Source: Ignavibacteriales bacterium (GTDB lineage: Bacteria; Bacillota; Clostridia; Acetivibrionales; UBA4821). From it: 64,000 nucleotides of DNA. Positions within the stretch are counted from its first letter, which is position 1. Each line of letters opens with the position of its first letter. Of this stretch, positions 42,221-62,115 are shown piece after piece. The stretch covers positions 17,761 to 81,760 of the forward strand of contig JBLNBO010000042.1 of NCBI GenBank assembly GCA_050260055.1, written 5' to 3'. The translations under genes were made by a program, and so were the position numbers. Under the pieces are notes generated by a model. It worked only from the letters and a program-made list of their open reading frames with translations. It had not been told where the DNA came from and did not search any database.

Positions 42221-42709
42221 CTATTCAGAAATAATATTATATATTGTGTCCTTCATATATTTAGCTGCACTTACCGGAGCAACTTTTCCCGGAAGTGATA
42301 ATGCCCATATGGTTTTCAAACCGACTTCTTTCGCTTTTTCAAAGTTTATTCCCCCTGGTTTTGATGCAAGGTCAATTATTAGAGCATCTTTCTTAATGCT
42401 TTCAAGTTCTTTGACATCGAGGATAATATGTGGAACAGTATTAAATATTACATCAAAGTTATTTAAATAGTTTGAAATTTCAGACATTCTTATTGGCAAA
42501 TATCCTGATGTTTCAATCCATGCCAGATCCGAATATTTACGGGCGGCTACTGATACTTTTGCCCCGATGCCTTGGAGCATTTTGGACAATACTTTACCAA
42601 TCCTCCCATAACCGAGAATTAAGATTTTTGAGTTGTGTAATGTTATTGGAAGTTCCTCCATTGCAATTTGTATTGCCCCTTCTGCCGTAGGTATTGCGTT
42701 TTCGATAAA
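42221..42709 (-). pseudogene. dpaA: 3' half of dipicolinate synthase subunit A (dpaA/spoVFA), separated from its 5' half by the inserted element
   Basis: Translation from 42709 down gives FIENAIPTAEGAIQIAMEELPITLHNSKILILGYGRIGK...FNTVPHIILD...IIDLASKPGG...LPGKVAPVSAAKY. This matches the C-terminal ~160 aa of DpaA (about 300 aa in Bacillus subtilis). An in-frame stop lies at 42710-42712, and upstream of it is the recombinase gene, not dpaA. Confidence 0.75.
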
Positions 42710-44268
42710 TCACTATACTCTTCCTCTTGAAAATACACGTCTTTCTCGATATTGCAATTCAAAATAATCTTAAAATGATTACGATTATAGACAACAATTT
42801 TATTTAATAGCTCTTTACAGACTTCCTCACTATAATCCTCTGCCTTTGCAAGTTTACTAATAGTATTTTTTATCCTTTTGCTTAATTCTCTTTTTTCAGC
42901 ATACTTTTCCTTTAGAGCTTTAATTTGTCTCAGATTTTCGTCAAGCTTCTCCAGCCGAACGTTATATTCATCATTCCTATCCTTGAATTCCGATTTTGAA
43001 ATGGTTTCGTCGGAATACAAATCTATTAGCTTTTCTTTCTTCACTTTTATCTTATCAATTTGTGCAGCTATATCTTTTATTTGGTTATTATTATTAGTCT
43101 CTTCAATAACCTTAAAAATTGCCTTTTCAAGATTATTTATTATTTCATCCTTGTTCTTCAACACTTCATTTAATACTGATGTGAAAGCCTGCCTCAATAC
43201 GACTTCATGAATAGATTTTGAACTGCATCCAACCTTATCCCCTGCTTTATTAACCTTCTCAGCACCGTATCTCATGCTTGTTCCGCATTGCCAGACTACC
43301 GTTTCGCAGCCCTTACCATAGTTCCATATCCTTCTTTTGTATTTTCCATCGCATATCCCGCATTCAATCCTTCCAGACCATGCGTATCTATTGGAATACT
43401 TGGTATTTTCTTCTTTATATTTATTTCTTCTCGTAATTTCTTTTTGAACATCTTCAAAGACCTTTTTATCAATTATAGCTTCATGATTTAACTCTTTAGT
43501 TATAAACTCCTCGTTTCCTTTGTTAGTCTTCCTTGAATGCGTAAGGAAATCTGTAGTAAGTTCTTTTCTCTGTTTAAGAGTACCTATATATTTTTCATTT
43601 TTTAGTATTTTAAGAATTGTTGCATTGCTCCACCGTTTAGCTCCTCTTGGTGTTGGTATACCCCTATCCTCAAGCTCTTTACATAATACATGAGTTCCCA
43701 TACCATCTTCATAATACAGTTTAAATATAAGTTGTATTATCTTTGCTTCTTCCTCATTTATATATAGCTTCCCATCCTTGACGTTAAACCCATATATCCT
43801 GTTTCCAAAAACAACCCCTCTTTCCATTGCCCTTTTCTGTCCCCACTTAACCCTTTCAGAAGTCTTTCTGCTTTCTTCCTGGGCAATACTCGCCATAATG
43901 GTTAATCTAAGCTCGCTGTCAGGATCAAGAGTATTTATATTATCGCTCATGAAAATAACAGCTACACCTATTGATTTAAGTTTCCTGGTATAATAAATGC
44001 TGTCTAGCGTGTTTCTGGCAAATCTGCTTATTTCCTTAGTTATTATAATATCAAACTTATTCTTCTCGGCATCTGCAATCATTTGTTTGAATCCGCTTCT
44101 CTTCTTTATGTTTGTCCCGCTAATACCTTCATCTACATATAAGCCAGCAAACTCCCAATCTTCGTTTCTATTTATATACTCCTCAAAATATCTTTTCTGG
44201 CTTTCAAGAGAATTTATTTGATCATCTTTATCAGTCGAAACCCTACAGTAAGCAGCAACTTTTTTCAT
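42643..44268 (-). CDS. Large serine recombinase
   Basis: Resolvase catalytic domain (AAYCRVSTDKDDQ..SLESQ), recombinase domain, Cys-rich zinc ribbon (CGICDGKY...WQCG) and a coiled-coil C-terminus. The ATG at 44268 follows AAGGTGG. Confidence 0.9.
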   Translation of the reverse strand: MKKVAAYCRVSTDKDDQINSLESQKRYFEEYINRNEDWEFAGLYVDEGISGTNIKKRSGFKQMIADAEKNKFDIIITKEISRFARNTLDSIYYTRKLKSIGVAVIFMSDNINTLDPDSELRLTIMASIAQEESRKTSERVKWGQKRAMERGVVFGNRIYGFNVKDGKLYINEEEAKIIQLIFKLYYEDGMGTHVLCKELEDRGIPTPRGAKRWSNATILKILKNEKYIGTLKQRKELTTDFLTHSRKTNKGNEEFITKELNHEAIIDKKVFEDVQKEITRRNKYKEENTKYSNRYAWSGRIECGICDGKYKRRIWNYGKGCETVVWQCGTSMRYGAEKVNKAGDKVGCSSKSIHEVVLRQAFTSVLNEVLKNKDEIINNLEKAIFKVIEETNNNNQIKDIAAQIDKIKVKKEKLIDLYSDETISKSEFKDRNDEYNVRLEKLDENLRQIKALKEKYAEKRELSKRIKNTISKLAKAEDYSEEVCKELLNKIVVYNRNHFKIILNCNIEKDVYFQEEEYSDLSKTQYLRQKGQYKLQWRNFQ

Positions 44269-44333
44269 ATGCACCACCTTAATACCATTTTCTATATTGT
44301 ATTATACTGTTATCTATAATGCAATGTTTTAGG

Positions 44334-44609: not shown

Positions 44610-45056
44610 TCAGAATAACCCTTTCTCTTTTAGGCTTGCATAACTTCCACTGTCACCTATAACTATATGATCCAGAACCTTAACTCCTAAGAGCTGCCCT
44701 GCCTCGTTCAAGCTCTTAGTTAGCCCAATATCGTCCTTGCTAGGCTGTACATCACCGCTCGGATGATTATGAAACAGTATTATTGAAGCTGCATTGTTCA
44801 AAAGAGCTTGCTGAAATACCTCTCTTGCTTCAACGACTGTCTGGTTCAGCCCACCAACTGCAATGATATGCAGTCCAGCGATTTTGTTCTTGGTCGTCAG
44901 GGTTATCAACCCGAATTTTTCTACCGGGGAGCTGCTTAGCTCAAACACTTTTTCTATTACATCGCATGCAATTCCAGGAGAGATTACTGATTCCTCCAGA
45001 GAGTAGTTTATACTGCTTTCTTTGACAAGCTTTACTGTGTACCTGTTAATTCTCAT
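44610..45056 (-). CDS. radC: RadC-like JAB/MPN-domain protein
   Basis: JAMM motif HNHPSGDVQPSKDD. The ATG at 45056 (MRINRYTV) follows GGAAAGGGTGA. The longer track ORF (to 45176) reads through the conserved leader repeat. Confidence 0.85.
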   Translation of the reverse strand: MRINRYTVKLVKESSINYSLEESVISPGIACDVIEKVFELSSSPVEKFGLITLTTKNKIAGLHIIAVGGLNQTVVEAREVFQQALLNNAASIILFHNHPSGDVQPSKDDIGLTKSLNEAGQLLGVKVLDHIVIGDSGSYASLKEKGLF

Positions 45057-45225
45057 TACGGTCACCCTTTCCTTTTTGTTGAAAGGGCATAATTTTACGG
45101 AGTGAATTTCAAGTAACCGTGGAATAAATTGAAAAGCACAAGCTTGGTTCTGCTTATGCCGCGAAAGTACTTGCAAATTCTAATGGAGTAAAATTGTACA
45201 ATGAAAAGAGATGGAAAAGGAGCTG
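45057..45225 (-). promoter_or_regulatory. Conserved structured 5' leader, copy 1 (TACAAT -10 box, nested helices, RBS-sequestering hairpin)
   Basis: The block 45087-45225 is ~90% identical to 53623-53759. On the minus strand, outer helix GAATTTGCAAGTA/TACTTGAAATTC encloses hairpin GCATAAGC/GCTTGTGC (G-U pair). CCCTTTC pairs with the GAAAGGG of the RBS. Confidence 0.6.
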
Positions 45226-45335
45226 ATACAAAAACAGATTCCATATAATTTATGTTGAATCTGGTAATGTTTCTTTTTTAATCAACGTTTCTCAGTCAAA
45301 TAGTCTCTGATAACCTTCATATTAAAAACACTTAA

Positions 45336-45497
45336 AACATTTTAATTTTCATTTTAAAAAAGATATTTTTATCTTACTTATCAAAAAGCGGAGCATTTGA
45401 GGATTACCCCTTCGGTTCTGACCCACTTGTTATAAAAATGAGTTTTAAAATGTTTGCACTTATTACAGAGAAAAATAAAAAGATTATATCTCATTAA
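45336..45497 (+). pseudogene. Remnant of an MmcQ/YjbR-family gene (N-terminal ~45 codons, no start codon)
   Basis: The plus-frame translation ..IFLSYLSKSGAFEDYPFGSDPLVIKMSFKMFALITEKNKKIISH* resembles the YjbR N-terminus (..PGA.EDYPFG.D..VFKV.GKMFAL). It is truncated at about one third of normal length. Confidence 0.4.
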
Positions 45498-47369
45498 TTA
45501 GTCCTCCTCGTCATTCAACTTGTGCAATTCTGATTCAGCATCATCTCGAGTTATTTTATAGTATTCCAGCAAAGATAAAATATCAATATCTGTCGTTTTT
45601 AGTGAAAGATCGTTAAAATCATTAGCATGAATAATTTCTTTTGCTGTTTGAAGCTTATCATTGGGCAATGAGTTAAAAGTTTCCCACCATTTATCTGTCA
45701 GGCCATTATCACGATAATAATATCTATAAATAATCATAGCTTCAGGCATATATAAGATTTTTTCAAACTCTTGCTCGTCCCTTCCAAAGGCAGCTTCAAA
45801 AAAGGACTTTCCTCGTCCAATCTTGCCTTTTGTTGAATTAAGAACTGCCTGAACGGATCGGATGAATTTTCTATTCCAATGTTTACCCATAAATGTACGA
45901 TTTCTGAAATACTGCGGGTCCTGTATAGGATGGTATTTCATTGGAAAGGAATAAATTATTACGTCTAACTCTTCGCATAAGTCAATGTTCAATTTTAATC
46001 TTTTGTATAAATCAACTGGTTCCTCGTTGTAGTTGTATAAAAGATAGTTAGACATATTTCTTATACCATATTGGGCTGCTAACCGAACAGCTCTTTCATA
46101 AACATTTCTTAGCTTCCACTCGTCAAATGCAATGCGTAATGGTCTAATTGGGATTTCGGCTAAGCGTGCCATTTTTTCTGGTGTCAGTAATCGTGCATCC
46201 ACACCTTGATTAAAATCCACATATCTTGCTTTTGGAATTACATTATGATATTTTTCAAAAATCGGGGCGAAAAACTCATCTGTATTCAATATTGCAGTTT
46301 TGCTGGCAGTTTCAACAGTTAAAAGTTTATTATTGTATAGGACCTCATAAATTTTAGGCTTCATTTCTTCACTACACCTTTTATAAAGCCATTTATACAG
46401 TTTAACGATACTATTTATGTGTCCACGGTAATTCATCTCCTGATTTCGCAAATCTCGAATTAAGATAGCATAATGATTAGGTTCGATATATGTCGCTCCT
46501 GTATGAAAACCGCAAGCTATTATTTCATCAATAATTTCGTTAAATCTCTCTGAAGCCAAGACATTATTATCTAATAGGAGTAAGTTCCTTTTTTCCCCAT
46601 AATTTTGATTTACATATTCTATTTGTTGTTGAATTCCAATATAATCGTTATACTGAGGCTCAATTTTAGGCACCGCACAAAAAGGGCAGCGGTTTATGCA
46701 CCCCCTTGTCATATAACCATAGTAGCCATTATTTTCTGGGTATATATAATTAATCTCATCCAAAATAGAATAGTCTAAAGGAAGATGATCGATGATAATA
46801 TTGTTATTATCATATTCGCCACCCTTATCTAGTAGTCCAATATGTGATTTAACACCCGTTTCTTTTTCAATTTGCTCTGGCACCAAAGATGCCGCAATTC
46901 CACCAACTTTAACTTGTGATATATCTTTACAAAGTTGTTTGAATGAATTTATTGTATCAATTGTTTTATCCCAGTAAAAAGTAAAAAGGGTTGTTATACA
47001 AATTCTATCCCATTTAGGATTATCCAAGTATTCTTTTTTATAATAATAAGAGCGATAATATTTTAAGTTTTCTGAAACTAAAGTACTACTTGTAAGACCT
47101 GTCAATTTTTTGAATGAAGTTGAAAAACCTTTTCGTATATAATTAATAATATCTGATTTATGTTCTCCCCAACAAACAGTATTATCATTGGCATAAAGTC
47201 GTTCAAGTAATTCTTCATAGATTTCAGTAATAATAAAATCTAAAAATTCCCCTTTAAAAAATCTCACCTCATCTCCAAGTCTTTTATGATATGTAGAAAT
47301 TTTCATGAGACCTATAGGAGGATATTTGTTTTTATAGTTTGGTTCAATTAGAAGTACTCTTCTTGCCAT
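45498..47369 (-). CDS. Radical SAM protein, 623 aa, with N-terminal Rossmann/B12-binding-like domain (defence-operon gene 5)
   Basis: CX3CX2C at C224/C228/C231 (MTRGCINRCPFCAVPK). The N-terminus RVLLIEPNYKNKYPPIGLMKISTYHKRLGDEVRFF resembles class-B-type radical SAM N-domains. Its start overlaps the upstream gene by 26 nt, and it has RBS GAGGAG. Confidence 0.8.
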   Translation of the reverse strand: MARRVLLIEPNYKNKYPPIGLMKISTYHKRLGDEVRFFKGEFLDFIITEIYEELLERLYANDNTVCWGEHKSDIINYIRKGFSTSFKKLTGLTSSTLVSENLKYYRSYYYKKEYLDNPKWDRICITTLFTFYWDKTIDTINSFKQLCKDISQVKVGGIAASLVPEQIEKETGVKSHIGLLDKGGEYDNNNIIIDHLPLDYSILDEINYIYPENNGYYGYMTRGCINRCPFCAVPKIEPQYNDYIGIQQQIEYVNQNYGEKRNLLLLDNNVLASERFNEIIDEIIACGFHTGATYIEPNHYAILIRDLRNQEMNYRGHINSIVKLYKWLYKRCSEEMKPKIYEVLYNNKLLTVETASKTAILNTDEFFAPIFEKYHNVIPKARYVDFNQGVDARLLTPEKMARLAEIPIRPLRIAFDEWKLRNVYERAVRLAAQYGIRNMSNYLLYNYNEEPVDLYKRLKLNIDLCEELDVIIYSFPMKYHPIQDPQYFRNRTFMGKHWNRKFIRSVQAVLNSTKGKIGRGKSFFEAAFGRDEQEFEKILYMPEAMIIYRYYYRDNGLTDKWWETFNSLPNDKLQTAKEIIHANDFNDLSLKTTDIDILSLLEYYKITRDDAESELHKLNDEED

Positions 47370-48957
47370 GTTTTAGCTCCTCTTGTATTTTACTTATCAA
47401 TTCTTCACTTTTGTCTGGAGGTAAATTTTGTATTATTACCTCATAAATTCTTGAAATCAGTTTTTGATGTTCTTTTGCCAAATGCGTTAATTCTTGAGTT
47501 AAAAAAACTTTCTTTTTTGAATGCACAGTAGGTTCATGGTCCTGAATTTCAGGTGTATTTTGTTTTATGTTATTATCAAACCCATTTTCGTTCATGGCTT
47601 TCTTATGTTTATCCTTAATTTTTGAGAAGACAACACGTAAAACATCATTATCTTCTCCTTTCGATTCATATTTCGCTATTTCTTTTAATGATTTCTCCTT
47701 TTCTTCTGCTGCGATTTCTAATGCTTTTTCAAACTTTTGTTGTTCTTTAACGCTAACAAATTTACCTTGTTTTCGTTCGAATTCATCTTGCTTCTTATAA
47801 AAATCAAGTTCCTTTTTAAAAGTATTTTTTACATCATTCGCATAATGATATGTTTTGTACAACTCTTCTTTGAAAAAATATTCAAGTTGGGCTTCTAAAT
47901 CGTTTATAGTTGCATTTTCATTAAAATAGTCCCTGCGAGCATTCGGTGTTAAATCTTTATGAACAGCATGTATTTCACCTACAAAGTACAAGTTACCCCT
48001 ATTTTCTTTAAAAAGAGGGGCTAAGGTACGTTCATTCCCAATTTGTATATTGGCTTGTCTTAAACGAATACCTGCCATTTCGTTAAGTGGAAATGGAATT
48101 TGCTTTTCAAAACGACTAATTCCATACCACATCCATGCAAGCATTTCGCCATTATCCGTAAAAAACTCTTTTATCTTTATAGTATATATTTCATCATACT
48201 TTTCTTTCTGGCTATCGTTAATTTTTTTATACAAAGTAGTAGAATACGGTTTGGAAATGTCTTCACCATTTACATAAATAACATATTCATTACGTGGCAA
48301 CCTCTTGCTATCGATATAGTTAAGAACATCGTGTTTGTAATGAAATTTAGGTCCAAATGGCACCGGAGCATTCATAGCAATATATTTCCTTACCATTTCG
48401 ATAGAAAGCAATTCTGTATTATCTTCACTAATATTAATAAGTTCAACAATAAAGAAATGCTCATTTACATCGCAAGGTTCATATTCATAGCTAATAATAC
48501 GTCTTAATACTTCCGTTGCATCGTCTTTTATAGATTTATCATCTAAGATCCGATTTAATTCTTTAGCATCCCAAGTCATAATAGTCATTGTATCGTCGCC
48601 TACAGCAGTTGTTATAAATCTAAGTTTATCACAATATGCTAATCCACCCAATCTTCCAATACCACGAAAGCCTAATCCTATTTCTTCATTTTTCTCTGAA
48701 TCAGCAACATTTGATAATTTTTCGGGAACTAGCTCACGAGGAATACCTGTTGCATTATCTTTGATATAAATATTCCTTTTTGCAGCATCTATCTTAATAT
48801 CAATGAATAATTCATCATTAAAAGTATTGTTAGCTATTGCTGTGAAAATTTGATATGCAGAATTCTGTATGTATTCACGGTAAATTATTTTTGAATCTTC
48901 ATACATACCTCTAGTCAGATTTTCTAATATTTTCTTGCCGATTTTATTTTCGCTCAT
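47344..48957 (-). CDS. GHKL-superfamily ATPase (Hsp90/MutL/MORC-like Bergerat fold) with coiled-coil C-terminus (defence-operon gene 4)
   Basis: N-box REYIQNSAYQ, motif II IKDNATGIP and motif III GLGFRGIGRLGGLAY. The C-terminus is Lys/Glu-rich and helical. RBS AGGAGG. Confidence 0.75.
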   Translation of the reverse strand: MSENKIGKKILENLTRGMYEDSKIIYREYIQNSAYQIFTAIANNTFNDELFIDIKIDAAKRNIYIKDNATGIPRELVPEKLSNVADSEKNEEIGLGFRGIGRLGGLAYCDKLRFITTAVGDDTMTIMTWDAKELNRILDDKSIKDDATEVLRRIISYEYEPCDVNEHFFIVELINISEDNTELLSIEMVRKYIAMNAPVPFGPKFHYKHDVLNYIDSKRLPRNEYVIYVNGEDISKPYSTTLYKKINDSQKEKYDEIYTIKIKEFFTDNGEMLAWMWYGISRFEKQIPFPLNEMAGIRLRQANIQIGNERTLAPLFKENRGNLYFVGEIHAVHKDLTPNARRDYFNENATINDLEAQLEYFFKEELYKTYHYANDVKNTFKKELDFYKKQDEFERKQGKFVSVKEQQKFEKALEIAAEEKEKSLKEIAKYESKGEDNDVLRVVFSKIKDKHKKAMNENGFDNNIKQNTPEIQDHEPTVHSKKKVFLTQELTHLAKEHQKLISRIYEVIIQNLPPDKSEELISKIQEELKHGKKSTSN

Positions 48958-48967
48958 TACATTCCTC

Positions 48968-50665
48968 CTATTTAAACTGCTTATAAATTGGCTCAGGAAA
49001 TTTAATATTTAGAAGTGATCTAAATATAGGGTTTTGTACGATATATTCACCTTGCTTCAAACGAGTCATCATATTTTTATAAACAGGAGGAATGTATTTA
49101 TATTCGCTATTTGCAAGTTCAATAGCATTGGTTCTGCCATAAGCAAATGTAGAACAGTTCCCAGAAACCCTGTTATGAATTGCGCTTTTAAATTGCTCTG
49201 CCGCAAATAGGACTACTCCTAGAGAACGTCCACGTTCTGCAATATCAAGAATTTGTTTTAGAATAGGAGAGTCTTTTGGAGCGTCTTTTGAGGCAAATTT
49301 ATTTAATTCATCAATGAATACAATAATTCTTGATGGAGGGCATTTACCATTACTATAATCCTTCTCATCCAATTGAAAATCATATAACTCCCTAATAACA
49401 TTGCCAAATACATAAGCCTGCATGTCAGAATCCAACTTTGCAATATCTACAACGAATACATCATTCTTTTGAATTTCTTTTATCTTTTCAGCAATACGTA
49501 CTTCACCATTACTTTCCTCTATATCATTAAATAAAGGATTGTTCCTTATAGATTTATTCATTAGACGCGTAAATTTACGCCAACTTGTTACAGTTATTTC
49601 GTTATTTTTATTTTTTGAAGTGTTCCCAGCCTCACAAAGTTCACCAATTTTTTCAAGGAAGCTTTGCCATGTAGTTATTGAATTAAAGCCATTCTGCCCA
49701 TCTATGACTTGGTTAATTATGCCAGCCATTGTCTGAGTTGAATCATCAATGTTAGAAAACATCAAGTCTATGCTATCCTTATCTTGCTGGTATGTAAACT
49801 TGTATTGAAATGCCTTCTTTTGTTTTCTTTGTTTTTCAAAGAGCTCATTGGGAACATAGGAATTCGTTTTATTTTTTGTCGAGTAGGGATATAGATATTT
49901 AACTTGACTGAAAGGAGTATCAGATAAACCAAGGTTTCTATATATAGATTTTACTTGATTTTCATTTTCTGTCTTGCCATCAAAGTCATTTGGCTCGTCA
50001 ATGGCTAATAAATCCCGACCTTTAACATTAAATACAACAAAAGCAACACTATCGTTTTCAGAGTCAGAGTTCTCCATTTTAAGGTACTTGTCTTGAATCG
50101 CCTTAAGTAGAAACATTGCGTATGATGTTTTCGATGCTAAACCAGAAATACCAGAAATATTTAAATGGGCTCCTTCTGGTCCTATAAGAAATTTTGAATC
50201 AACATTAACTGGCAGTGTTATTTTATTAGATTCTCCAGAACTTTCATACATTTCAAGATATCCACATACAAGCGGATTCTTAATATCTGAAAGGCCAAGT
50301 GCTTTGCTAACTTCATCACGTGTTGCCAAATATACCTTACTGCCACTATGTACAGGAATAAATATATTTTTGTCATTTCCTACAACATTAGCTTTTACAT
50401 AATTCATACCTATTCTTAACGTAGGTTCCACAGATGTAACATCACCAAAATCATTCGATATGAAATTTGATAAAAAGCTTGCTGAATCGGTTATATGTGA
50501 TATTTCCTCAATAACTGCAAATGTTTTGCTGCCATTGATATGATCAACTTTTACCACATCAAAAGGATTCAATATTAAATCAGTATTAGTCCAGAAGCAA
50601 AAACTATCTATTGTTGTAGGTACCTTTTCCGTTGCTATTATGCGTCCTATTAAACTCATATTCAT
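48968..50665 (-). CDS. HerA-like (FtsK/HerA clade) ATPase with HAS-barrel N-domain (defence-operon gene 3)
   Basis: The N-terminal barrel pattern is IGRIIATEKVP...FDVVKVDH...FAVIEEI. The P-loop region is ISGISGLASKTSYAMFLL and Walker B is RIIVFIDELNKFA. The RGRSLGVVLFAAEQFKS segment is typical of HerA. Confidence 0.75.
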   Translation of the reverse strand: MNMSLIGRIIATEKVPTTIDSFCFWTNTDLILNPFDVVKVDHINGSKTFAVIEEISHITDSASFLSNFISNDFGDVTSVEPTLRIGMNYVKANVVGNDKNIFIPVHSGSKVYLATRDEVSKALGLSDIKNPLVCGYLEMYESSGESNKITLPVNVDSKFLIGPEGAHLNISGISGLASKTSYAMFLLKAIQDKYLKMENSDSENDSVAFVVFNVKGRDLLAIDEPNDFDGKTENENQVKSIYRNLGLSDTPFSQVKYLYPYSTKNKTNSYVPNELFEKQRKQKKAFQYKFTYQQDKDSIDLMFSNIDDSTQTMAGIINQVIDGQNGFNSITTWQSFLEKIGELCEAGNTSKNKNNEITVTSWRKFTRLMNKSIRNNPLFNDIEESNGEVRIAEKIKEIQKNDVFVVDIAKLDSDMQAYVFGNVIRELYDFQLDEKDYSNGKCPPSRIIVFIDELNKFASKDAPKDSPILKQILDIAERGRSLGVVLFAAEQFKSAIHNRVSGNCSTFAYGRTNAIELANSEYKYIPPVYKNMMTRLKQGEYIVQNPIFRSLLNIKFPEPIYKQFK

Positions 50666-50671
50666 TGCCTC

Positions 50672-51829
50672 CTAAAATAATTGTATAAATAACTCATGGC
50701 TTAAGTATTTACTTTTTACATATTGTTCGGTCAGATATATTGGGTACAGATGATTCGCCCAACGTTCATCCGCTCCGTAACATACAGGATTACGCTCATT
50801 AATCAAGTATGCAGTAATATTGTTAATTTCATCGGTATCAATACCATTTGTCCACTCGGTATCTGTTACAATTAGCTTTTCTATTTTTAATATACCGTCA
50901 AAAATACTTTTTGTATGTTTTGCATTTCTGATCCGTAAATACCAAATACAAAAGTCTACATTCGCCATCTTTGATTGGTATCTGTATGCCGGTGTTCGTT
51001 CAAAAGGTTTCAAATTAGCAATGATATTTGAGTTAGTACCGCCACCTTCAACAAGGCATTTCGTTGGGTCAAAAGATTTTGAAACTCCGATTACGTAACG
51101 ATAATTCTTTTTTATATGCTCTTCGCTCAAATTTAAGGCTTTTTTGTTATTTTTTTGAGGAATATGTTTATAATCCAAAGAACCGTCTTTTATTAAATAA
51201 TTAGATAAGTTAAGTTTATTGGCAGTAACTAAATTTGAAACCATTTGTTTTTCTAATTCGACCATATAGTCCTGGATTTTGGCAATTCCTTTCTTATCCA
51301 GTTTATCATCTTTATTAGTGTTATATATTAATAAATCGCTGAATTCAATGAATTGTTGATTTCTAAGTTTAACGTTCTTGTTTATCTTATCAAGTAAAGG
51401 TTTAGCTTGATCAGCACCATTCCAATCTGTACTAAATGCTTTATCAGGTAAAACAATTACCAATTTCCGTTCAAAAGGCATAGCAGGGTGAAGTTGCTTA
51501 CTTACCCTTTGGCAAGTACCAACACCTATTTGTCCAGCAATTATTGGATAAACGTCTTTTTGAAAAGACATATCGTCAACTTTATATGTGTGCCTTGAAC
51601 CATCAAGGAAATATGTAAAAATAGAAGGATATTCTGCTTTTGCATCCGCAACATCTTTCAAATTAATAGGTCTCTTCAATTTTTCGGTCTCGCCATATTC
51701 CTTCCATATAACATCTTTATTATCATCGTAATCAATACCACTACGCTCCCCAGTGTCATGACAATATTTATGGGAGTTAAAGCTGCTTCCCTTACGATCT
51801 TCCGCAATAATCTTCATGATGTTGCCCAT
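50672..51829 (-). CDS. NurA-like nuclease (defence-operon gene 2)
   Basis: Two DGS motifs (FLDGSR at D76, IKDGSL at D215) and C-terminal HLYPIYLTEQY resemble the NurA catalytic motifs. It is directly coupled to the HerA-like gene by a 6-nt gap. Confidence 0.6.
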   Translation of the reverse strand: MGNIMKIIAEDRKGSSFNSHKYCHDTGERSGIDYDDNKDVIWKEYGETEKLKRPINLKDVADAKAEYPSIFTYFLDGSRHTYKVDDMSFQKDVYPIIAGQIGVGTCQRVSKQLHPAMPFERKLVIVLPDKAFSTDWNGADQAKPLLDKINKNVKLRNQQFIEFSDLLIYNTNKDDKLDKKGIAKIQDYMVELEKQMVSNLVTANKLNLSNYLIKDGSLDYKHIPQKNNKKALNLSEEHIKKNYRYVIGVSKSFDPTKCLVEGGGTNSNIIANLKPFERTPAYRYQSKMANVDFCIWYLRIRNAKHTKSIFDGILKIEKLIVTDTEWTNGIDTDEINNITAYLINERNPVCYGADERWANHLYPIYLTEQYVKSKYLSHELFIQLF

Positions 51830-51847
51830 GTTTTCACCACTTCCATT

Positions 51848-52033
51848 TTACTTTTCTGAAACCCTACAAGATTTAACCCATTCATCAATTTCAGAAGTTT
51901 TAAATTTCCATAATCGACCAACTTTATGAGCAGGCATATTTTTAATATTTATCCATTTTAAGGCTGTATCCCTGCTAATACCAAGGTAATCACATATTTC
52001 GGCTAAGGAGAGCCATCTATCAACATTTTTCAT
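51848..52033 (-). CDS. Small excisionase/MerR-type helix-turn-helix protein (defence-operon gene 1)
   Basis: 61 aa. LSLAEICDYLGISRDTALKWINIKNMPAHKVGRLWKFKTSEIDEWV is the canonical excisionase-family HTH pattern. It lies 18 nt upstream of the NurA-like gene. Confidence 0.8.
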   Translation of the reverse strand: MKNVDRWLSLAEICDYLGISRDTALKWINIKNMPAHKVGRLWKFKTSEIDEWVKSCRVSEK

Positions 52034-52081
52034 CTATGCAACTCCAAGTTCAAATTATTCACATAACCTTCCAACGCAAAA

Positions 52082-52110
52082 ATTATATTTTAATAAAGTA
52101 GTCTAGTCAA
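52082..52110 (-). promoter_or_regulatory. Consensus sigma-A promoter of the five-gene operon
   Basis: Minus strand TTGACT (52105-52110), 17 nt spacer, TATAAT (52082-52087), about 45 nt upstream of the HTH start. Confidence 0.65.
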
Positions 52111-52121
52111 TCGATTTTTGC

Positions 52122-52153
52122 ATTTTTATGATGATTAACGTATTTTTATGATG
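52122..52153 (-). promoter_or_regulatory. Two 12-nt direct repeats just upstream of the -35 box (candidate regulator binding site)
   Basis: ATTTTTATGATG occurs at 52122-52133 and 52142-52153, a 20-nt period. Confidence 0.4.
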
Positions 52154-52362
52154 TAATAAAATGATATATCATGCAAGCTGAGATGTTTGATTTTACTGCA
52201 TTCTTTTGATATACATGTACAAAATAGTCTTATTTTTTAAATTTCACCCCGGAACTTTCCGGTAAAACATTAGCGGTCGTCTTGCAATACAAATACGCAA
52301 AATTACCTCATCTAACGTGTATTTGTTTAATTCTGCGTAAGTGTCTTAATAGAGTCAATTAC

Positions 52363-53133
52363 TCAATCTTCAATATCTCTAATATAAGGAACATATTGAA
52401 TGTTCCCTTCAACTCTTACTTTTCCCGATTCAATAATGGTATGTTCCAACCGTTCAACTTCACTTCTTGTCAGTTCAAGCTTGCTGTTGAATTTAGTTTT
52501 ATAATTATTAAGGTAACAAACGAATTTACTTTTGTTGTTTTGATCTTGCAAGATAAATATTGAGTCGCATGCTGATAGCAGCGGGAATTCATCGCTTTCA
52601 ATTTGGGCTTCTTTTTCTACTATATACTCCACACTGGTAAAGCCTCGTTGGGGCTTATCTTCTGTATTGGGAATCAACCAATCACGTCCATTTTTCTTTG
52701 CAAATCTCAATTTCCCACGCCTAATCCATTGTCTGACCGTAATAGGCTCAATCCCAAGCATGGAGGCATATTGTTCAACTGTAAGGTAATCACATTCAAC
52801 CGTGATTAAAGTGTGTTCCACAGTTGAGGTCATGCCACTAATTTCATCATTTTCAACTTCAATCTCGTCAGCCTGACATAGATTCAACTCCATGCTATTC
52901 CCTAAAAATTGATATTCATAGAACCACCAAAGCTCTGTCAAAACTGGAAGTTTGCATTTTTTTACTGCTGCAGTAAATTTTTCGCAAAGCTTTACTCTGT
53001 TTTTTACAACTTCGTTTGAATATATAGGCTCTTCATTTAGTTTTTCGTGTTCAACAAATAACTCCAATGACCTTAAAATATCTTCACGCGTAAACAGATA
53101 GCTTTCACGGAATAATCTTTCTTTAATATCCAT
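52363..53133 (-). CDS. HTH-domain protein (excisionase/MerR-type DNA-binding motif in the middle of a 256-aa protein)
   Basis: LTVEQYASMLGIEPITVRQWIRRGKLRFAKKNGRDWLIP. The ATG at 53133 follows GGGGGGTG. Confidence 0.6.
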   Translation of the reverse strand: MDIKERLFRESYLFTREDILRSLELFVEHEKLNEEPIYSNEVVKNRVKLCEKFTAAVKKCKLPVLTELWWFYEYQFLGNSMELNLCQADEIEVENDEISGMTSTVEHTLITVECDYLTVEQYASMLGIEPITVRQWIRRGKLRFAKKNGRDWLIPNTEDKPQRGFTSVEYIVEKEAQIESDEFPLLSACDSIFILQDQNNKSKFVCYLNNYKTKFNSKLELTRSEVERLEHTIIESGKVRVEGNIQYVPYIRDIED

Positions 53134-53152
53134 AAAGACACCCCCCACATAA

Positions 53153-54035: not shown

Positions 54036-54854
54036 ATGAGTGTTAAACTACAAATTAGTCATGATTATGAAAAAATTCAGCTTAATAATAAAGAATACGG
54101 AGTAACAGGATTAACCGATTATACTCCAGCAGTATGGAATGAATTATCAGCAGTTAATTGGTACGTAAACGAAAGAGAATTTATAGAAAATAAAAAAACT
54201 TATATTTATACAGGTTCTAAACGATTTGGAGAACTTAATAAATTGCATCAAATTGTAATGATGCTTTGGTACGGAAAAGAAGCAGTTCAATCTGCTTATT
54301 TGAACAACTATATTATTGAGCATCATAATAATGATGAATTTGATTGTCATATAAGAAATCTATCTTTTGCTTCTAATGATCTTAACTTAGCTAAAGCCCA
54401 TACTTTCGATAAGACTCAACCTTTATTGTTAAATCAAGCTGCTGTGAATTTTTATAAAGATTTTGAAACCAAACAATATCAAATTACCGTTAAATTTACT
54501 CGAGATTATATTCTCAGCGTAAATGGAAAGTCATTTTTGCTAGATAGTTTATTTTTACTTTATGAAGATAATTTTAGAGTTGTATATACTGATGCAAATA
54601 GAATTGTAGATGAACTTTTAGAGATAGGACAGGTTAATTTTAAATTGCTTTCTTATAAAGATTACTCATTTGTTGAAGGAAAAATTTATATTCCTAAAAA
54701 AGATGAAAAGATTGAAGGAATACAAATTAGAACAGATGAGAGTGGCAATAGTTATATTACCGTTAGTGACGATACTTTATTTTTTTTCAATAGAACGCTT
54801 CCTGACCAAGATTTATATAAGAATAATGTGAAGAATGAAGAAAATAAAGAATAA
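54036..54854 (+). CDS. HNH-like endonuclease-domain protein
   Basis: RBS GGTTGAGGAG. IIEHHNNDEFDCHIRNLSFASNDLN resembles the HNH_3-type H-x-D/N...N-L...N motif. Confidence 0.45.
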   Translation: MSVKLQISHDYEKIQLNNKEYGVTGLTDYTPAVWNELSAVNWYVNEREFIENKKTYIYTGSKRFGELNKLHQIVMMLWYGKEAVQSAYLNNYIIEHHNNDEFDCHIRNLSFASNDLNLAKAHTFDKTQPLLLNQAAVNFYKDFETKQYQITVKFTRDYILSVNGKSFLLDSLFLLYEDNFRVVYTDANRIVDELLEIGQVNFKLLSYKDYSFVEGKIYIPKKDEKIEGIQIRTDESGNSYITVSDDTLFFFNRTLPDQDLYKNNVKNEENKE

Positions 54855-54936: not shown

Positions 54937-57246
54937 CTACCCTACATCCATAAACTCCTCCGGTTTGGTTGTCATCAACCTATATTCCTTTTCACTTATC
55001 TCAAACTTACAAGGAACAATCAACCCCCCAGCCACGATAAGCCCATGCCCACAGTCGCTGTTAGTTACATAATTAAGCTGTGCCTGGCTCAGCTGTAAAA
55101 TATCCGCTAACTGCTTCCTATCCGATGCAGCCTGATCCATTAGTATAATAAACTGACTATTTGAAAGCATCGACCTTGCAATATCACTCTTGAGCAAATC
55201 CTCAACATTCTGCGTTATGCCTGTTGGAATTCCTCCATACTTTCTTGTCCTTTTATATAACTCATAAAGGAACCTACCCGAATATTCGTTATTGAACATC
55301 AGATATATCTCATCCATGTACAACCATGTTCTTTTCTTTTTCCCTCTGTTCGAGACAATCCTGTTCCAAATATTATCCAGAACAACCTGCATTCCAAGAG
55401 GCTTTAACTGATCCCCAAGCCTGTTTATATCATAGCAAATAAGCCTGTTATTAAGATTTACATTCGTCTTCTCCGAGAATATACTCAAGCTTCCCTGAAC
55501 ATACAACTCTAATGACAAAGCAAGTCTTTGAGCTTCCTGTTCTGGCTGTTTCTTCAATATCTCAAAGTAGTCATTCATTGTCGGAATCTTCTCAGCCTTA
55601 AAATGTGAATTAATATAATCCTTATATGTCTGTCTCGTTACTCTGTCCAATATCGCCTTTTCCTCAGACTTTAGTGGACCTATGAGCTGATCAAATATGC
55701 CTATGAGGAATTCTCCTTTAAGCTTCAAAGGCGGCTCGTCATCCCCATAATCCTTCTCCATATCGAACGGGTTTATATGTGTTTCGCTGTTTGCTGATAT
55801 TGTAACTATCTCCCCATCCAATTCCTTAACCACAGGGAAATACTCTCTTTCCGGATCAATTATGATTATGTCATCATCAGTACAAAGAAAAGCTCTATAG
55901 AGCTCTGCCTTAGCAGCCATTGTCTTCCCACTCCCAGGAGTTCCAAGTATAAATCCACTGGGATTCTTTATGTCATTCTTTCTATCAAATACAACAAGCG
56001 AAGAGGTAATCTTGTTTATCCCATAAAATATTCCCTTGTTTGAGAATACATCCTGTGCAGTAAAGGGCAGCAGTATTGCAGCACCGTCAGTCAGTACCTG
56101 CCTCTTAACCTCAAGCCTGTTACTGCAAAACGGCAGCACACTGTTCAAACCATATTCCTGCCTATGTGTTGCAATCAATGCTTTTATCCCATGCTTTCCG
56201 CATATATTCTGGGTTACCTTTGTATAATGCTCAAGCTGTTCCGGCGTATTTGCTGTGAGGCATATGTAAATTGCAGCATTAAAAAGTCTCTTATCATTAG
56301 CCTGAAGCTCATGGAGCAGCTTTTTTGAAGCCTCAAGGTTATATTCAAGATCAAACGGAGGCAGCTTCCCGCTTTTTGCAGAAATCAATTTATCTGACTC
56401 CATCGCTGTAATCCTTCTGCGAATGAACCTGATTGCATCTCCAGGATCAATATTCTCTATGTTAATTGATATATCAACATTAAAGTTCAGGCTTAAAAGG
56501 TCTCCGACAAACCTGTCGGTCAAGGAATTAGGCAGCTCTCTGATAAACATAATCCTTTTGAACTCAGTGCCAATTTCAATGTGATTACTTTTGAACCTGA
56601 AGCTTGAAGGGCAAATAAGGTCTTTAATACTTACCCCTCTTGAAGCAACATCCTGAGAAAGGCAAAATGGCTGTGATCTTTTAAGTCCCGGGTTGTAAGC
56701 ATTATAGAGCAGTTTCAATATTTCTTCAGCTCCCAGCCTGATTACCCTTGCGTTATATTTTTTAAAATGCTGCTCTATTGAAGCAATCCTTCTTTCCAAT
56801 TCTCCTAAAACATCGGTGTATTTAATACCCTCGCATTTTATAGCAAGGAATCTTTTTCTGTCAGCAGCCTTCTTTGATATAGAAATATCGGTAATCCAAT
56901 TACGGTAATACTTAAGATCATCCAAATGAGTTTCATGCTCTTCAGGAATAATATTCATTACCTCTTTTGTATCAAGCACATCATTAGTAAGATACCACTG
57001 AACCCCATAATCCAATGAATTAAGCATGGTACAGTAATTCCTGAATATGTCCTCCTGGTCGTTTTCTCTTGCAAGGCTGTAATTTATATTATCAACTGAG
57101 CATACAGCGACATAAACATTATCTGGCATTTCAATAAGCCCATCCTTGGTTATTGCTTCAAAGGGAAGGGTTTGCTGTGCAGTTCTATTTACCCGGTACT
57201 TTCTTAACCTTTTTCTTTTCAAGGAGCTTAATAATCTTTTTATCAT
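54937..57246 (-). CDS. VirB4-family type IV secretion ATPase
   Basis: 769 aa. Walker A is FILGTPGSGKTMAAK and Walker B is WLYMDEIYLMF. It is adjacent to a PrgI/VirB3-like gene. Confidence 0.85.
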   Translation of the reverse strand: MIKRLLSSLKRKRLRKYRVNRTAQQTLPFEAITKDGLIEMPDNVYVAVCSVDNINYSLARENDQEDIFRNYCTMLNSLDYGVQWYLTNDVLDTKEVMNIIPEEHETHLDDLKYYRNWITDISISKKAADRKRFLAIKCEGIKYTDVLGELERRIASIEQHFKKYNARVIRLGAEEILKLLYNAYNPGLKRSQPFCLSQDVASRGVSIKDLICPSSFRFKSNHIEIGTEFKRIMFIRELPNSLTDRFVGDLLSLNFNVDISINIENIDPGDAIRFIRRRITAMESDKLISAKSGKLPPFDLEYNLEASKKLLHELQANDKRLFNAAIYICLTANTPEQLEHYTKVTQNICGKHGIKALIATHRQEYGLNSVLPFCSNRLEVKRQVLTDGAAILLPFTAQDVFSNKGIFYGINKITSSLVVFDRKNDIKNPSGFILGTPGSGKTMAAKAELYRAFLCTDDDIIIIDPEREYFPVVKELDGEIVTISANSETHINPFDMEKDYGDDEPPLKLKGEFLIGIFDQLIGPLKSEEKAILDRVTRQTYKDYINSHFKAEKIPTMNDYFEILKKQPEQEAQRLALSLELYVQGSLSIFSEKTNVNLNNRLICYDINRLGDQLKPLGMQVVLDNIWNRIVSNRGKKKRTWLYMDEIYLMFNNEYSGRFLYELYKRTRKYGGIPTGITQNVEDLLKSDIARSMLSNSQFIILMDQAASDRKQLADILQLSQAQLNYVTNSDCGHGLIVAGGLIVPCKFEISEKEYRLMTTKPEEFMDVG

Positions 57247-58990: not shown

Positions 58991-60772
58991 CTAATTCCCC
59001 CTTAAATCTGCATTTTCAAAAATACTCATGTTTTCGTACATAGCTGTTTCTCTCTTCTTTGCCGTCTTAGTCTTATTCTGTTGTAGATTTATTACCTTCT
59101 TTTGCGTTTCTTCTGTGTTTTTTTCTAAGGGAGTTTCTTTAAGTACTATTTCATCAGGCGTAAAGGCTGTTCTATAGAAATTATGATCTGCTCTTTCCAA
59201 CTGGTTGAATGATTTATGCTTTTCAAGCTTATACTTTTGAGCTTTAATCGGATAAATTCCTTTTAAAAAGATTATGCTGTTATCCGGTTCCAGCCTTGTT
59301 ACCTCATCAGGAGTAAGAAGCGGCCTTCCTGTTTTTCCTTCATTTTCACTCTTTGAATTTCTTGATCCGTCCTTAAGGTTAACTGAAACAGCCTTGCTTT
59401 TATTAGCCACTGTAGCCTTTCCAAGCCTTTCCGATATATATCTTGCAGTCTCAATATCCTGACTTCCCAGAAATAATAGGGTGTCACAGTTTCCAACAAT
59501 ATCAGACCATTCCTTAAAATATCCTGCCTTGAGCTGGGCAAGAGACTGTACTGCTATTGATACACTTATGTCCCTGGACCTCATTGAAGCAACCTTTGTT
59601 GAGAAATCGGGTATCTTCCCAATATTGCTGAATTCGTCAAGTAAGCATATTACCGGAAGAGGCAGCCTTCCACCGTACTTATCTGCCTGAGAATACATTA
59701 CCTGAAACATCTGACTAAAAAGCATCGATGATATAAAATCAAATGTCCTATGGGTGTCACTTGTAATAATATAAACCACTGTTTTCTTTGACCCTATGTC
59801 AGTCAGCTTCATTGAATCTGCCGAAGTAAGCCTGGCTATCTCCCCATTCTGTAAAACCTGCAGTCTTATACCAAGTCCAATCATTATATTTCCTCTTGTT
59901 TTGGGATCTCCAGACAGGCAGAAAACCTTATAAGCATTCAATGCTGGATTATCTTCCGGCAGCTTAAAAAACAGCTCGTCAAGCTTATCCTCATTAGATG
60001 CAGTCAAAAGAAGCTTAAAGACCCCTGCAAGATTCCTCCTTGCTTTTGGATATTCATTTTTTACATATGTTATCAACGCTGTAAGCAGTGCCAATTCGGA
60101 GCTGCTCCAAAAGCTGTCATTCTCGATTCCTAAAGAGCTGCCTGAGGTATTGTCTATTATTGTCCTGGCAAGAATCTGAATATCCTGCTGTGTTGCTGCA
60201 TATTCCAATGGATTATAGAAATCGGACGTCTGAAGGTTTACCAGATTTAGAACCTTTACTGAGTAATCATTAGCTTCTAAATACTTGTATGTGTCATCAA
60301 ATATCTCTCCCTTAGGATCAGTAATGATGTAGCTGCCATTCATCTGCATCACATTTGGCTTTATATATCCTCTGGATTTGCCTGCTCCGCTACTTCCGAT
60401 TATTAGAATGTTTTTATTTATTGGTGCATCCATGCTCAGGAATGTTCTGCTGCCAAGAATTATTCCGTTTTCAGCATTAAGTAAACTTTTTGTTTCATTA
60501 GGCTTTGCCCACCTTGCCGAACCGCAGGAATCATTATTACTTTGACTCTCACCAGGCTTATATGCGTATCCAATGAATATTGCAAATATAAGTATGTATA
60601 ACCCTTGATAGCTCAAAAATCTATGGAAGTACTCGTAGTTTGTAAACACTTCAAAAACTGCAGCAGGATTAGCAAGTGCCTTGCTGCCAACAGCAATGGC
60701 TCCTGCAATCAAAATGTCAAAAAGAATAAATGTAATTATCCAGAATAATACCCTGCCAAATATCTTCTTCAC
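58991..60772 (-). CDS. VirD4/TraG-family type IV coupling protein
   Basis: GTG start. It has N-terminal TM segments, Walker A IIGSSGAGKSRG and Walker B VICLLDEFSNIG. Confidence 0.85.
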   Translation of the reverse strand: MKKIFGRVLFWIITFILFDILIAGAIAVGSKALANPAAVFEVFTNYEYFHRFLSYQGLYILIFAIFIGYAYKPGESQSNNDSCGSARWAKPNETKSLLNAENGIILGSRTFLSMDAPINKNILIIGSSGAGKSRGYIKPNVMQMNGSYIITDPKGEIFDDTYKYLEANDYSVKVLNLVNLQTSDFYNPLEYAATQQDIQILARTIIDNTSGSSLGIENDSFWSSSELALLTALITYVKNEYPKARRNLAGVFKLLLTASNEDKLDELFFKLPEDNPALNAYKVFCLSGDPKTRGNIMIGLGIRLQVLQNGEIARLTSADSMKLTDIGSKKTVVYIITSDTHRTFDFISSMLFSQMFQVMYSQADKYGGRLPLPVICLLDEFSNIGKIPDFSTKVASMRSRDISVSIAVQSLAQLKAGYFKEWSDIVGNCDTLLFLGSQDIETARYISERLGKATVANKSKAVSVNLKDGSRNSKSENEGKTGRPLLTPDEVTRLEPDNSIIFLKGIYPIKAQKYKLEKHKSFNQLERADHNFYRTAFTPDEIVLKETPLEKNTEETQKKVINLQQNKTKTAKKRETAMYENMSIFENADLRGN

Positions 60773-61712: not shown

Positions 61713-62115
61713 TGTTATCACCAACCTTGTTCTCAAGCTGCTTTATGGTTTTTCTTCTTGCGGAGTCATAAATACCATCTATTTCATTCATGACCTGCTC
61801 CAGAGTTTCTTTTTCAGTAGTAGTAATATAGTCAGCAGATAAAGGCAGCAGCAGATTAAGGATTATTCCGGCATCGAGCTTTATTCTGAAAAGCACTTCA
61901 AGCAAGTCTTCTTCCAGCGTAGCAAGCTTTTTTTCTATAGGAATAAGAATGCTTGAAAATACCTGTTCGTCATTCTTGCCCTTTTCTTTTGCAATGTAAT
62001 CACGGACAGCATTCTCAAGCTGATTTGAGATAGAATCGTTTTTAACCTTAGACGCTATTTCAGACAGTTCCTTGTAAAGCGAGCTTTCTATTATTATCGT
62101 TCTGCGTTCTCTCAT
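61699..62115 (-). CDS. Relaxosome accessory protein (MobC/ribbon-helix-helix-like)
   Basis: 138-aa helical protein immediately upstream of and overlapping the relaxase. The N-terminus MRERRTIIIESSLYKELSEIA is RHH-like. Confidence 0.45.
   Translation of the reverse strand: MRERRTIIIESSLYKELSEIASKVKNDSISNQLENAVRDYIAKEKGKNDEQVFSSILIPIEKKLATLEEDLLEVLFRIKLDAGIILNLLLPLSADYITTTEKETLEQVMNEIDGIYDSARRKTIKQLENKVGDNNAVC

Follow-up and report, generated by a model that had tools for sequence, protein, structure and literature searches.

The subject of this report is a compact operon encoding a predicted nuclease, two ATPases and a radical SAM enzyme, located in a 64,000-nt stretch of contig JBLNBO010000042.1 from an Ignavibacteriales bacterium (positions 17,761 to 81,760). 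The whole stretch is referred to as the window and all coordinates are given within it. The listing of open reading frames (ORFs) showed five tightly packed minus-strand ORFs at 45498-52033, which are given here together with their upstream region:

52142-52153 and 52122-52133, minus strand: two 12-nt direct repeats CATCATAAAAAT, 20 nt apart and directly upstream of the -35 box
52110-52082, minus strand: sigma-70-type promoter TTGACT-17-TATAAT, with 11 of 12 consensus positions, called by consensus match only
51848-52033, minus strand: excisionase-type, MAD1-like helix-turn-helix (HTH) protein, 61 aa (Pfam HTH_17, 1.7e-15)
50672-51829, minus strand: predicted NurA-type nuclease, 385 aa, with an RNase H/PIWI-like fold (AlphaFold2 model and Foldseek)
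48968-50665, minus strand: bacterial (Deinococcus)-type HerA translocase ATPase, 565 aa (by sequence homology to 7f6d_B)
47344-48957, minus strand: Hsp90/MORC (HATPase_c_3)-type GHKL (Bergerat-fold) ATPase, 537 aa (HATPase_c_3, 4.9e-8)
45498-47369, minus strand: radical SAM enzyme, 623 aa (CX3CX2C motif and predicted fold), its start overlapping the GHKL gene by 26 nt

The genes are separated by 18 nt (HTH/NurA), 6 nt (NurA/HerA) and 10 nt (HerA/GHKL), a ribosome-binding site of the GGAG/AGGAGG type lies 5′ of all five start codons, and the four enzyme genes make up a cassette of 6.3 kb. The repeat CATCATAAAAAT occurs exactly twice in the window, where 0.05 copies were expected, and two matches were found in none of 100 shuffled sequences; we infer that the repeats are a candidate operator for the HTH protein. 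The promoter was the top promoter-like site within 45000-52600, a region in which the total of such sites was not above chance. Gene coordinates, gaps, overlap, ribosome-binding sites, promoter and repeats agree with the first-pass annotation of this DNA, which had been made from the sequence letters. A terminator-like hairpin at 45160-45135 was rejected as a part of the operon and left off the list, because it is weak and such sites are no commoner than chance.

Judged by sequence homology, the 565-aa protein is a bacterial-type HerA. In a phmmer search of the PDB it matched the HerA of Deinococcus radiodurans (7f6d_B) at 7.3e-37, and the alignment comprised residues 5-272, i.e. the barrel and the P-loop, and residues 403-560, i.e. 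the ATPase core. An N-terminal barrel region is followed by a deviant P-loop NISGISGLASKTS (169-181), Walker B DELN (452-455) and ERGRSLG (477-483), and both proteins have in common the unusual P-loop NISGISGxAxKTSYA, Walker B DELNK and ERGRSLG. In the alignment of homologues 157 residues were at least 97% conserved, and DELN and ERGRSLG..AEQ (477-491) were likewise conserved. The top PADLOC model was mad8 (2.4e-9; a partial match of 130 residues), followed by HerA at 2.4e-5. The NCBIfam model HerA_Thermprot, with its cut-off at 800 bits, reached only 20, Pfam DUF87, the HerA central domain, gave no match at E≤0.1, and the HerA chains of Sir2-HerA/DUF4297-HerA systems (8xau, 8ziq) were weak sequence matches (~7e-5). 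The match of the 537-aa protein to HATPase_c_3 was above the gathering score of Pfam, and its motifs E28/N32, D67-N68..G71 and G96-F-R-G-I-G-R-L-G-G105 were at least 97% conserved in 66 sequences. Searched against the PDB, the GHKL family profile reached the N-domains of HtpG/TRAP1/Hsp90 at 8e-11; the C-terminal third of the protein is K/E-rich and variable.

No family match of the 385-aa protein was obtained in Pfam (NurA model at E≤0.1), NCBIfam or PADLOC. As a single sequence it gave nothing significant in the PDB, and its family profile reached NurA (7f6d_H) only at E 0.64. Weak matches to PycC and ZoocinA were treated as noise. An AlphaFold2 model built with 38 homologues as input was confident, with a predicted local distance difference test score (pLDDT) of 87.2 and a predicted template modelling score of 0.88. 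The only significant PDB matches of this model in Foldseek were NurA chains, namely 7f6d_G of D. radiodurans (6.7e-13) and 2ygk_A of S. solfataricus (9.9e-8), and Argonaute/PIWI proteins followed as far weaker matches. Two DGS motifs (D76-G77-S78 and D215-G216-S217), E193 and the tail residues H360/Y362/P363/E368 were at least 97% conserved in 66 homologues; the tail reads HLYPIYLTE. In the predicted model, the candidate catalytic residues D76, E193, D215 and H360 are placed on those strands and that helix where they would be expected. One homologue carries the UniRef name 'NurA domain-containing protein', and nurA adjoins herA with a median gap of 13 nt in 67 loci. By its predicted fold and its adjacency to herA, and by no sequence model, the protein is a member of the NurA family.

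The 623-aa protein contains the cysteines C224, C228 and C231 of the CX3CX2C motif, which were the sole conserved cysteines among 78 sequences and belong to the 131 residues conserved there to at least 97%. Pfam Radical_SAM matched at 1.1e-5 (26.1 bits against a gathering score of 29.5), and no sequence relative was found in the PDB by single sequence or by profile. In the AlphaFold2 model (pLDDT 89.9) the N-domain is a Rossmann fold of the B12-binding-like type and carries a helical insert; the CX3CX2C motif, a partial TIM barrel and, last, a C-domain of helices follow. Foldseek matched this model to radical SAM enzymes only, with MgmA (9ccb, 2.1e-7) and TsrM (6wte, 5.3e-7) followed by MiaB (7mjv) and AprD4 (6fd2); neither a viperin nor a DNA-lyase radical SAM enzyme appeared in the match list. 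AprD4 and MiaB, enzymes that work without cobalamin, matched about as well as the B12-domain enzymes TsrM and MgmA, and some relatives of the protein matched the B12-binding family PF02310 below threshold. As modelled, the protein is a member of the radical SAM superfamily with a class-B-like fold. A methylthiotransferase role was rejected because auxiliary-cluster cysteines are not conserved. Identity as a viperin was also rejected, since the protein had no PADLOC match and its top folds were of the B12-domain and MiaB types.

The names NurA-like, HerA-like, Bergerat-fold ATPase and radical SAM protein with a Rossmann/B12-like N-domain, which the first-pass annotation had given to these four products, are borne out by the matches described above. 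The motifs it had pointed to (DGS twice, the YPIYL..E tail, DELN, RGRSLG..AEQ and CX3CX2C) are present and conserved among homologues, not degenerate. The Pfam families it had put forward were recovered in part: HATPase_c_3 was found, Radical_SAM stayed below its gathering score, and NurA and DUF87/HerA gave no match at E≤0.1.

Loci of radical SAM relatives were scanned with one genome per species, and the 80 best of them were examined. Such relatives are encoded in at least 549 species-representative genomes, and the family comprises 421 clusters at E≤1e-30 (50% clustering); its homologues, which number in the thousands, are all labelled 'hypothetical' or 'radical SAM protein'. The complete colinear order NurA>HerA>GHKL>radical SAM was found in 63 of the 68 informative loci, i.e. 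those with enough upstream DNA, in a methanogen and in bacteria of at least ten phyla. Gene order is thus kept across unrelated genomes, a point on which the first-pass annotation had let its proposal stand or fall. Bacterial hosts of the 80 best loci belong to the Bacillota, Bacteroidota, Planctomycetota, Verrucomicrobiota, Synergistota, Melainabacteria, Aminicenantes, Ignavibacteria, Cloacimonadota and Deferribacterota, and archaeal hosts to Methanomethylovorans and the Altiarchaeales; judged by record titles, they are largely organisms of gut, sediment and other anaerobic habitats. The identities of the four proteins to those of the window co-vary (r = 0.86-0.94), and therefore the four genes are passed on as a set. 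The median intergenic distance is 13 nt between HerA and GHKL, as between NurA and HerA, and -1 nt between GHKL and the radical SAM gene. The latter junction overlaps in 44 of 79 cases, most often by 4 nt, which suggests that the two genes are translationally coupled and that their products form a GHKL-radical SAM complex. Copies from Clostridia, Bacteroidota, Planctomycetota and methanogens are 50-70% identical, their distribution is patchy, and the cassette is, on such sequence comparisons, horizontally transferred. That the four genes constitute one functional system is near-certain.

The HTH gene was present in only five related loci among those examined for cassette order. Because of this, the HTH protein is an optional accessory regulator outside the cassette core, and the five-gene system proposed originally is reduced to a core of four genes. 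The excisionase-type character of the HTH protein was upheld by the HTH_17 match and by a match to the excisionase domain TIGR01764 at 1e-15 (NCBIfam). It also matched PADLOC mad1 at 4.4e-9 and scored 73.4 bits with the NCBIfam model antiphage_MADS1, just under the 80-bit cut-off. The two closest HTH-bearing relatives (loci L018 5100-5336 and L005 5100-5339) carry A/T-rich AATAAA(T/C)C repeats about 20 nt apart upstream of the HTH gene, which are unlike CATCATAAAAAT in sequence.

In most variants of the cassette the radical SAM and GHKL genes were the constant pair, while the nuclease partner varied between NurA-HerA and PIN_8. Plasmid relatives of the radical SAM protein from Rhizobium, Mesorhizobium, Bradyrhizobium, Roseomonas and Novosphingobium are 33-42% identical, about 537 aa long and devoid of the helical inserts; RefSeq names for the plasmid relatives are only 'radical SAM protein' and 'ATP-binding protein'. 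On the two plasmids examined, Rhizobium leguminosarum pR132505 (L085 7947-15725) and Novosphingobium pNL1 (L086 3943-14345), the order DGQHR protein > radical SAM > GHKL was found beside a pair of PIN_8 nuclease and GHKL, in a conserved island; this island looks to be another relative of the window system, likewise without a name and present in aerobes. The DGQHR proteins matched DndB (Pfam) and DpdB (PADLOC, down to 1.5e-17). A DndB-HEPN fusion could also be observed in pNL1, on the opposite strand. Long members of the radical SAM family (680-820 aa) were scanned for fused domains; none was detected by Pfam, and BLAST revealed only one fusion, a 791-aa protein (P0355) in which a DndB/DpdB-like domain (residues 48-277) is joined N-terminally to the family member. 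The other long members have C-terminal extensions without a Pfam match. By these sequence matches, the radical SAM family is tied to proteins of DNA-modification systems.

Further variants were found closer to the cassette core or without NurA-HerA. Temperate Marinitoga camini virus 1, a phage of a thermophile (KP836355; L087 5866-9692), carries a NurA-HerA pair convergent with a 360-aa radical SAM relative and no GHKL gene; its HerA is 33% identical to that of the window (3.5e-81). In two Aminicenantes genomes an extra GHKL protein (~552 aa) and a ~330-aa protein are encoded between the first GHKL gene and the radical SAM gene, and this pair recurs with the radical SAM gene in an Altiarchaeales genome lacking NurA-HerA. 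Loci with the pair are L066 7352-10004, L040 and L064 7326-9992. The Altiarchaeales variant has the order GHKL-332 aa-radical SAM. Another variant, radical SAM-267 aa-GHKL, is likewise without NurA-HerA and adjoins the PADLOC candidate system PDC-M33; in L072 4319-7214, PDC-M33A/B (3e-106 and 1.5e-44, PADLOC) lie directly upstream of it. A 262-267-aa protein and a second GHKL follow directly after the radical SAM gene in L034 11917-14174, L037 11912-14154, L047 11879-14141 and L072 11895-14167. The FIDVLGF / GGIAKG motifs of the 262-267-aa protein recall class III nucleotide cyclases; the protein had no Pfam match, and its sole family match was a weak one to PADLOC PycC (E 0.0097). In a Bacteroidales locus (L061 6257-8442) an ABC-type AAA_15/AAA_21 ATPase of 457 aa and a 269-aa protein are inserted between herA and the GHKL gene, which looks like one defence-like module nested in another.

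The cassette of the window is cargo of an integrative conjugative element (ICE). This setting had been claimed from the sequence and was confirmed by the serine recombinase, RadC, the VirB4-like ATPase, the coupling protein and the relaxase-like gene; the neighbouring genes are:

42643-44277: large serine recombinase
44610-45176: RadC, directly downstream of the cassette; its start (TTG at 45176) is probably placed too far upstream, because the RadC domain begins at residue 79
52363-53148, minus strand: second HTH_17 protein, 261 aa, upstream of the operon
54036-54854, plus strand: 272-aa ORF, earlier called an HNH gene, with an HHNNDEFDCH stretch and no Pfam match at E≤0.001
54937-57246: VirB4-like ATPase (TraG P-loop)
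58991-60772: type IV coupling protein
60774-61736: weak relaxase-like gene

Homologues of the 261-aa HTH_17 protein, 80-87% identical, were found on 30 metagenome contigs (L088-L117). Neither the cassette nor the type IV secretion system (T4SS) genes of the window were seen on any of them, and among the 14 that reach at least 6 kb none had the cassette or the VirB4 gene of the window; therefore the 261-aa HTH_17 gene circulates in other elements. As a search for this ICE with other cargo, the scan is of little weight. Around cassettes of other genomes the recurrent neighbours were tyrosine integrases (11 loci) and Schlafen/AlbA_2 proteins (10 loci), and further AbiEi, a YpsA-SLOG protein, relaxases, serine recombinases, RepA-like ATPases and T4SS-associated genes. 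PADLOC analysis of 145 proteins from the flanks of about 22 cassette loci gave strong matches to Lamassu LmuA/B/C, AbiEi/AbiEii and Mokosh MkoA/C, and also to PDC-S01/S04/S13/S51 and a CBASS-type endonuclease. As regards its context, the defence island suggested by the first-pass annotation is supported, with cassettes inside mobile elements and with established defence genes as their neighbours. In C. botulinum it lies beside other accessory genes, and in Methanomethylovorans the four genes stand alone between housekeeping genes.

No model of PADLOC-DB 2.0.0 or NCBIfam 20.0 fits the gene set, and none covers the GHKL or radical SAM proteins. The gene set was also not described in the literature searched, i.e. 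papers open without subscription, so that the earlier statement that no named defence system is known to combine all four enzymatic modules holds for the databases and papers covered. Three promising literature matches, on a reappraisal of phosphorothioates (PMC10853773), on ProPhylo (PMC3226654) and on T. kivui (PMC12044746), were unrelated to the gene set.

By kind, the cassette is rated among those multi-gene conflict systems in which ATPases and a nuclease are joined by a modifying enzyme. We give somewhat better than even chances to the reading that it is a restriction-like, nucleic-acid-targeting defence system not described before and used mainly by anaerobes. In such a system the HerA hexamer would translocate duplex DNA into the NurA dimer, which would degrade the invading DNA; this step is proposed because of the known action of HerA-NurA complexes. 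For HerA-NurA to act, DNA ends are needed; conjugative and transforming DNA have such ends, and the injected genomes of phages and transferred DNA would offer them to the system. The GHKL-radical SAM pair would act on DNA, with the GHKL protein as an ATP-driven clamp or loader and the radical SAM enzyme installing (most plausibly) or reading a chemical mark by which host DNA is told apart from foreign DNA, comparable to the modification modules of Dnd, Dpd and MADS. An action on DNA is proposed because of the DpdB/DndB links, the coupling to GHKL and the class-B-like fold. The HTH protein would repress the operon via the two CATCATAAAAAT repeats and thereby set its expression. From sequence comparison, the data speak for a module in which GHKL and the radical SAM enzyme are coupled and directed at DNA, probably to modify it, rather than for one that makes a small molecule. 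A division of roles as suggested by the first-pass annotation, with GHKL and HerA as sensor and motor, NurA as effector and the radical SAM enzyme as maker of a signal or poison, is not supported in that form. That the radical SAM enzyme itself modifies DNA we regard as less likely than not. A bolder version is put forward just as tentatively: a radical SAM enzyme, possibly cobalamin-dependent and loaded by GHKL, might install a new DNA mark that licenses host DNA against NurA-HerA, and radical SAM-GHKL might be the core of a wider superfamily of modification modules, spread over hundreds of bacterial and archaeal species, with interchangeable nucleases (NurA-HerA or PIN_8-GHKL) and DpdB-like helpers. 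There is a substantial chance that the chemistry of the cassette is new.

Several points weigh against a defence system of this kind. The HerA-NurA complex characterised in D. radiodurans serves repair and not defence. The census of defence neighbours among 145 proteins consists of raw counts with no background control, and some genomes (e.g. locus L001) hold the cassette amid housekeeping genes, without mobile-element or defence genes in the vicinity. The link to DpdB/DndB rests on radical SAM relatives which are only 33-42% identical and lack NurA-HerA, and no DpdB-like (DGQHR) gene was found in the window cassette with Pfam and PADLOC.

The first of these points leads to a repair or recombination module, comprising DNA-end resection by HerA-NurA, a MutL-like GHKL protein and lesion reversal by a radical SAM enzyme of the spore photoproduct lyase kind, in the service of host or ICE DNA processing. 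We consider this unlikely. The D. radiodurans repair complex is indeed the closest solved relative, RadC lies directly downstream in the window, and the Methanomethylovorans cassette is placed among housekeeping genes; the cassette is, however, patchy and horizontally transferred, with 50-70% identity across Clostridia, Bacteroidota, Planctomycetota and methanogens, and it is met repeatedly inside mobile elements and next to genes of Lamassu, AbiE, Mokosh and PDC systems. Unrelated ATPase modules embedded in the cassette and DpdB-like partners in its relatives likewise speak against repair, as do the top folds of the radical SAM protein, which are those of B12-domain methylases and a methylthiotransferase and include no DNA-lyase in the match list.

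It also appears improbable that the cassette is a small-molecule or abortive-infection system, in which a modified nucleotide or a signal, viperin-like or messenger-like and made by the radical SAM enzyme, would act as a poison of phage replication or activate NurA-HerA, and the GHKL protein would be the sensor of infection. Radical SAM viperins are antiviral enzymes, and the variants with a 262-267-aa protein by the radical SAM gene and a second GHKL have the cyclase-like motifs described above; but the cyclase idea is without a Pfam match, and the fold of the radical SAM protein resembles B12-domain methylases and MiaB, with no viperin in the match list. Moreover, gene neighbourhood and a fusion connect the family with DpdB/DndB-like proteins, which bind DNA, and the enzyme is tightly coupled to GHKL, a class of DNA-clamping ATPases. 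A small chance is left for a weapon or maintenance module of mobile elements, aimed mainly at competing plasmids and ICEs or stabilising its own element as an addiction module rather than acting against phages, which would suit the ICE cargo in the window, the frequent relaxase, T4SS-associated, RepA-like and recombinase neighbours, the plasmid relatives and the DNA ends supplied by conjugative and transforming DNA, whereas the cassette is also found without nearby mobile-element genes and in a temperate phage, and the proposal overlaps the defence reading, from which its target alone differs.

If the cassette is a defence system, it is a widespread, strongly conserved immune module of anaerobes, among them gut Bacillota and Bacteroidota, methanogens and Planctomycetota, and it could reveal radical SAM chemistry on DNA as a principle of self-marking. 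Screens run aerobically in E. coli or Bacillus may well have passed it over, as the iron-sulfur cluster of radical SAM enzymes is oxygen-labile. The small size of the cassette and its clear catalytic residues open the hypothesis to direct tests.

Compared with known systems, the cassette is not MADS, Sir2-HerA/DUF4297-HerA, Dpd/Dnd or a viperin system, since each of these has a defining component that was looked for here without success. The MADS system comprises mad1-mad8, of which MAD6, MAD7 and MAD8 are mandatory, with an N6-methyltransferase, and occurs in Proteobacteria, Actinobacteria and Nostocales (bioRxiv 10.1101/2023.03.30.534895). The window resembles it in a MAD1-like HTH protein, in mad8 as the top PADLOC match of HerA and in a multi-gene operon of ATPases with a SAM-using enzyme. 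It differs in having no N6-methyltransferase, kinase or specificity subunit, in its MAD1 score under the NCBIfam cut-off and in its hosts, which are mainly anaerobic Bacillota, Bacteroidota and others. Membership was rejected, as only mad1 (4.4e-9) and a partial mad8 (2.4e-9) were matched and no mad6, mad7 or methyltransferase model in PADLOC or NCBIfam. With the Sir2-HerA/DUF4297-HerA systems ('Her' systems of Gao) the cassette shares a HerA-family ATPase and an effector enzyme in a compact mobile operon. Here, in contrast, the effector is of the NurA type, GHKL and radical SAM are obligatory, and the PADLOC HerA models scored 2.4e-5 or worse; membership was rejected, since no Sir2 or DUF4297 domain was found in the operon with Pfam and PADLOC. 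The 7-deazaguanine (Dpd) and phosphorothioate (Dnd/Ssp) systems are alike in their proposed logic, i.e. a DNA-modifying module combined with ATPase-nuclease restriction, and distant radical SAM relatives adjoin or are fused to DpdB/DndB-like DGQHR proteins. The putative modifier of the window is, unlike theirs, a radical SAM enzyme, and membership was rejected because Pfam and PADLOC revealed no DpdA transglycosylase, DndA/C/D/E or DGQHR protein in the operon.

Among single components, the radical SAM protein is comparable to the class B enzymes TsrM and MgmA and to MiaB/AprD4 in its predicted order of a Rossmann (B12-type) N-domain and a radical SAM barrel with CX3CX2C, while it differs in two large helical inserts, a helical C-domain and the lack of detectable sequence similarity. 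Known members of the class B/MiaB/AprD4 group act on small molecules, peptides, proteins or tRNA. The GHKL protein is like the prokaryotic MORC/paraMORC ATPases, which are of the HATPase_c_3 type and encoded next to nucleases in conflict-system operons, but its closest PDB sequence matches are Hsp90/HtpG N-domains; a survey of MORC/paraMORC proteins in restriction-modification contexts does not report the NurA-HerA plus radical SAM partner set (PMC8011034). The archaeal HerA-NurA is described as a machine for DNA-end resection and repair (PMC12977600). The closest comparison is with the HerA-NurA of D. radiodurans (7F6D), with which the window shares HerA homology (7.3e-37), the deviant P-loop, Walker B, the arginine-finger region and the gene order nurA>herA, and the NurA chain of which is the top structural match of the window NurA model. 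We know of no GHKL or radical SAM partner of the known HerA-NurA pair. In contrast to D. radiodurans, the NurA protein of the window is without a sequence-level family match and the cassette is mobile and sporadic; if the defence reading is true, it would be the first case in which a genuine NurA-HerA, until now a machine of repair, forms part of a conflict system.

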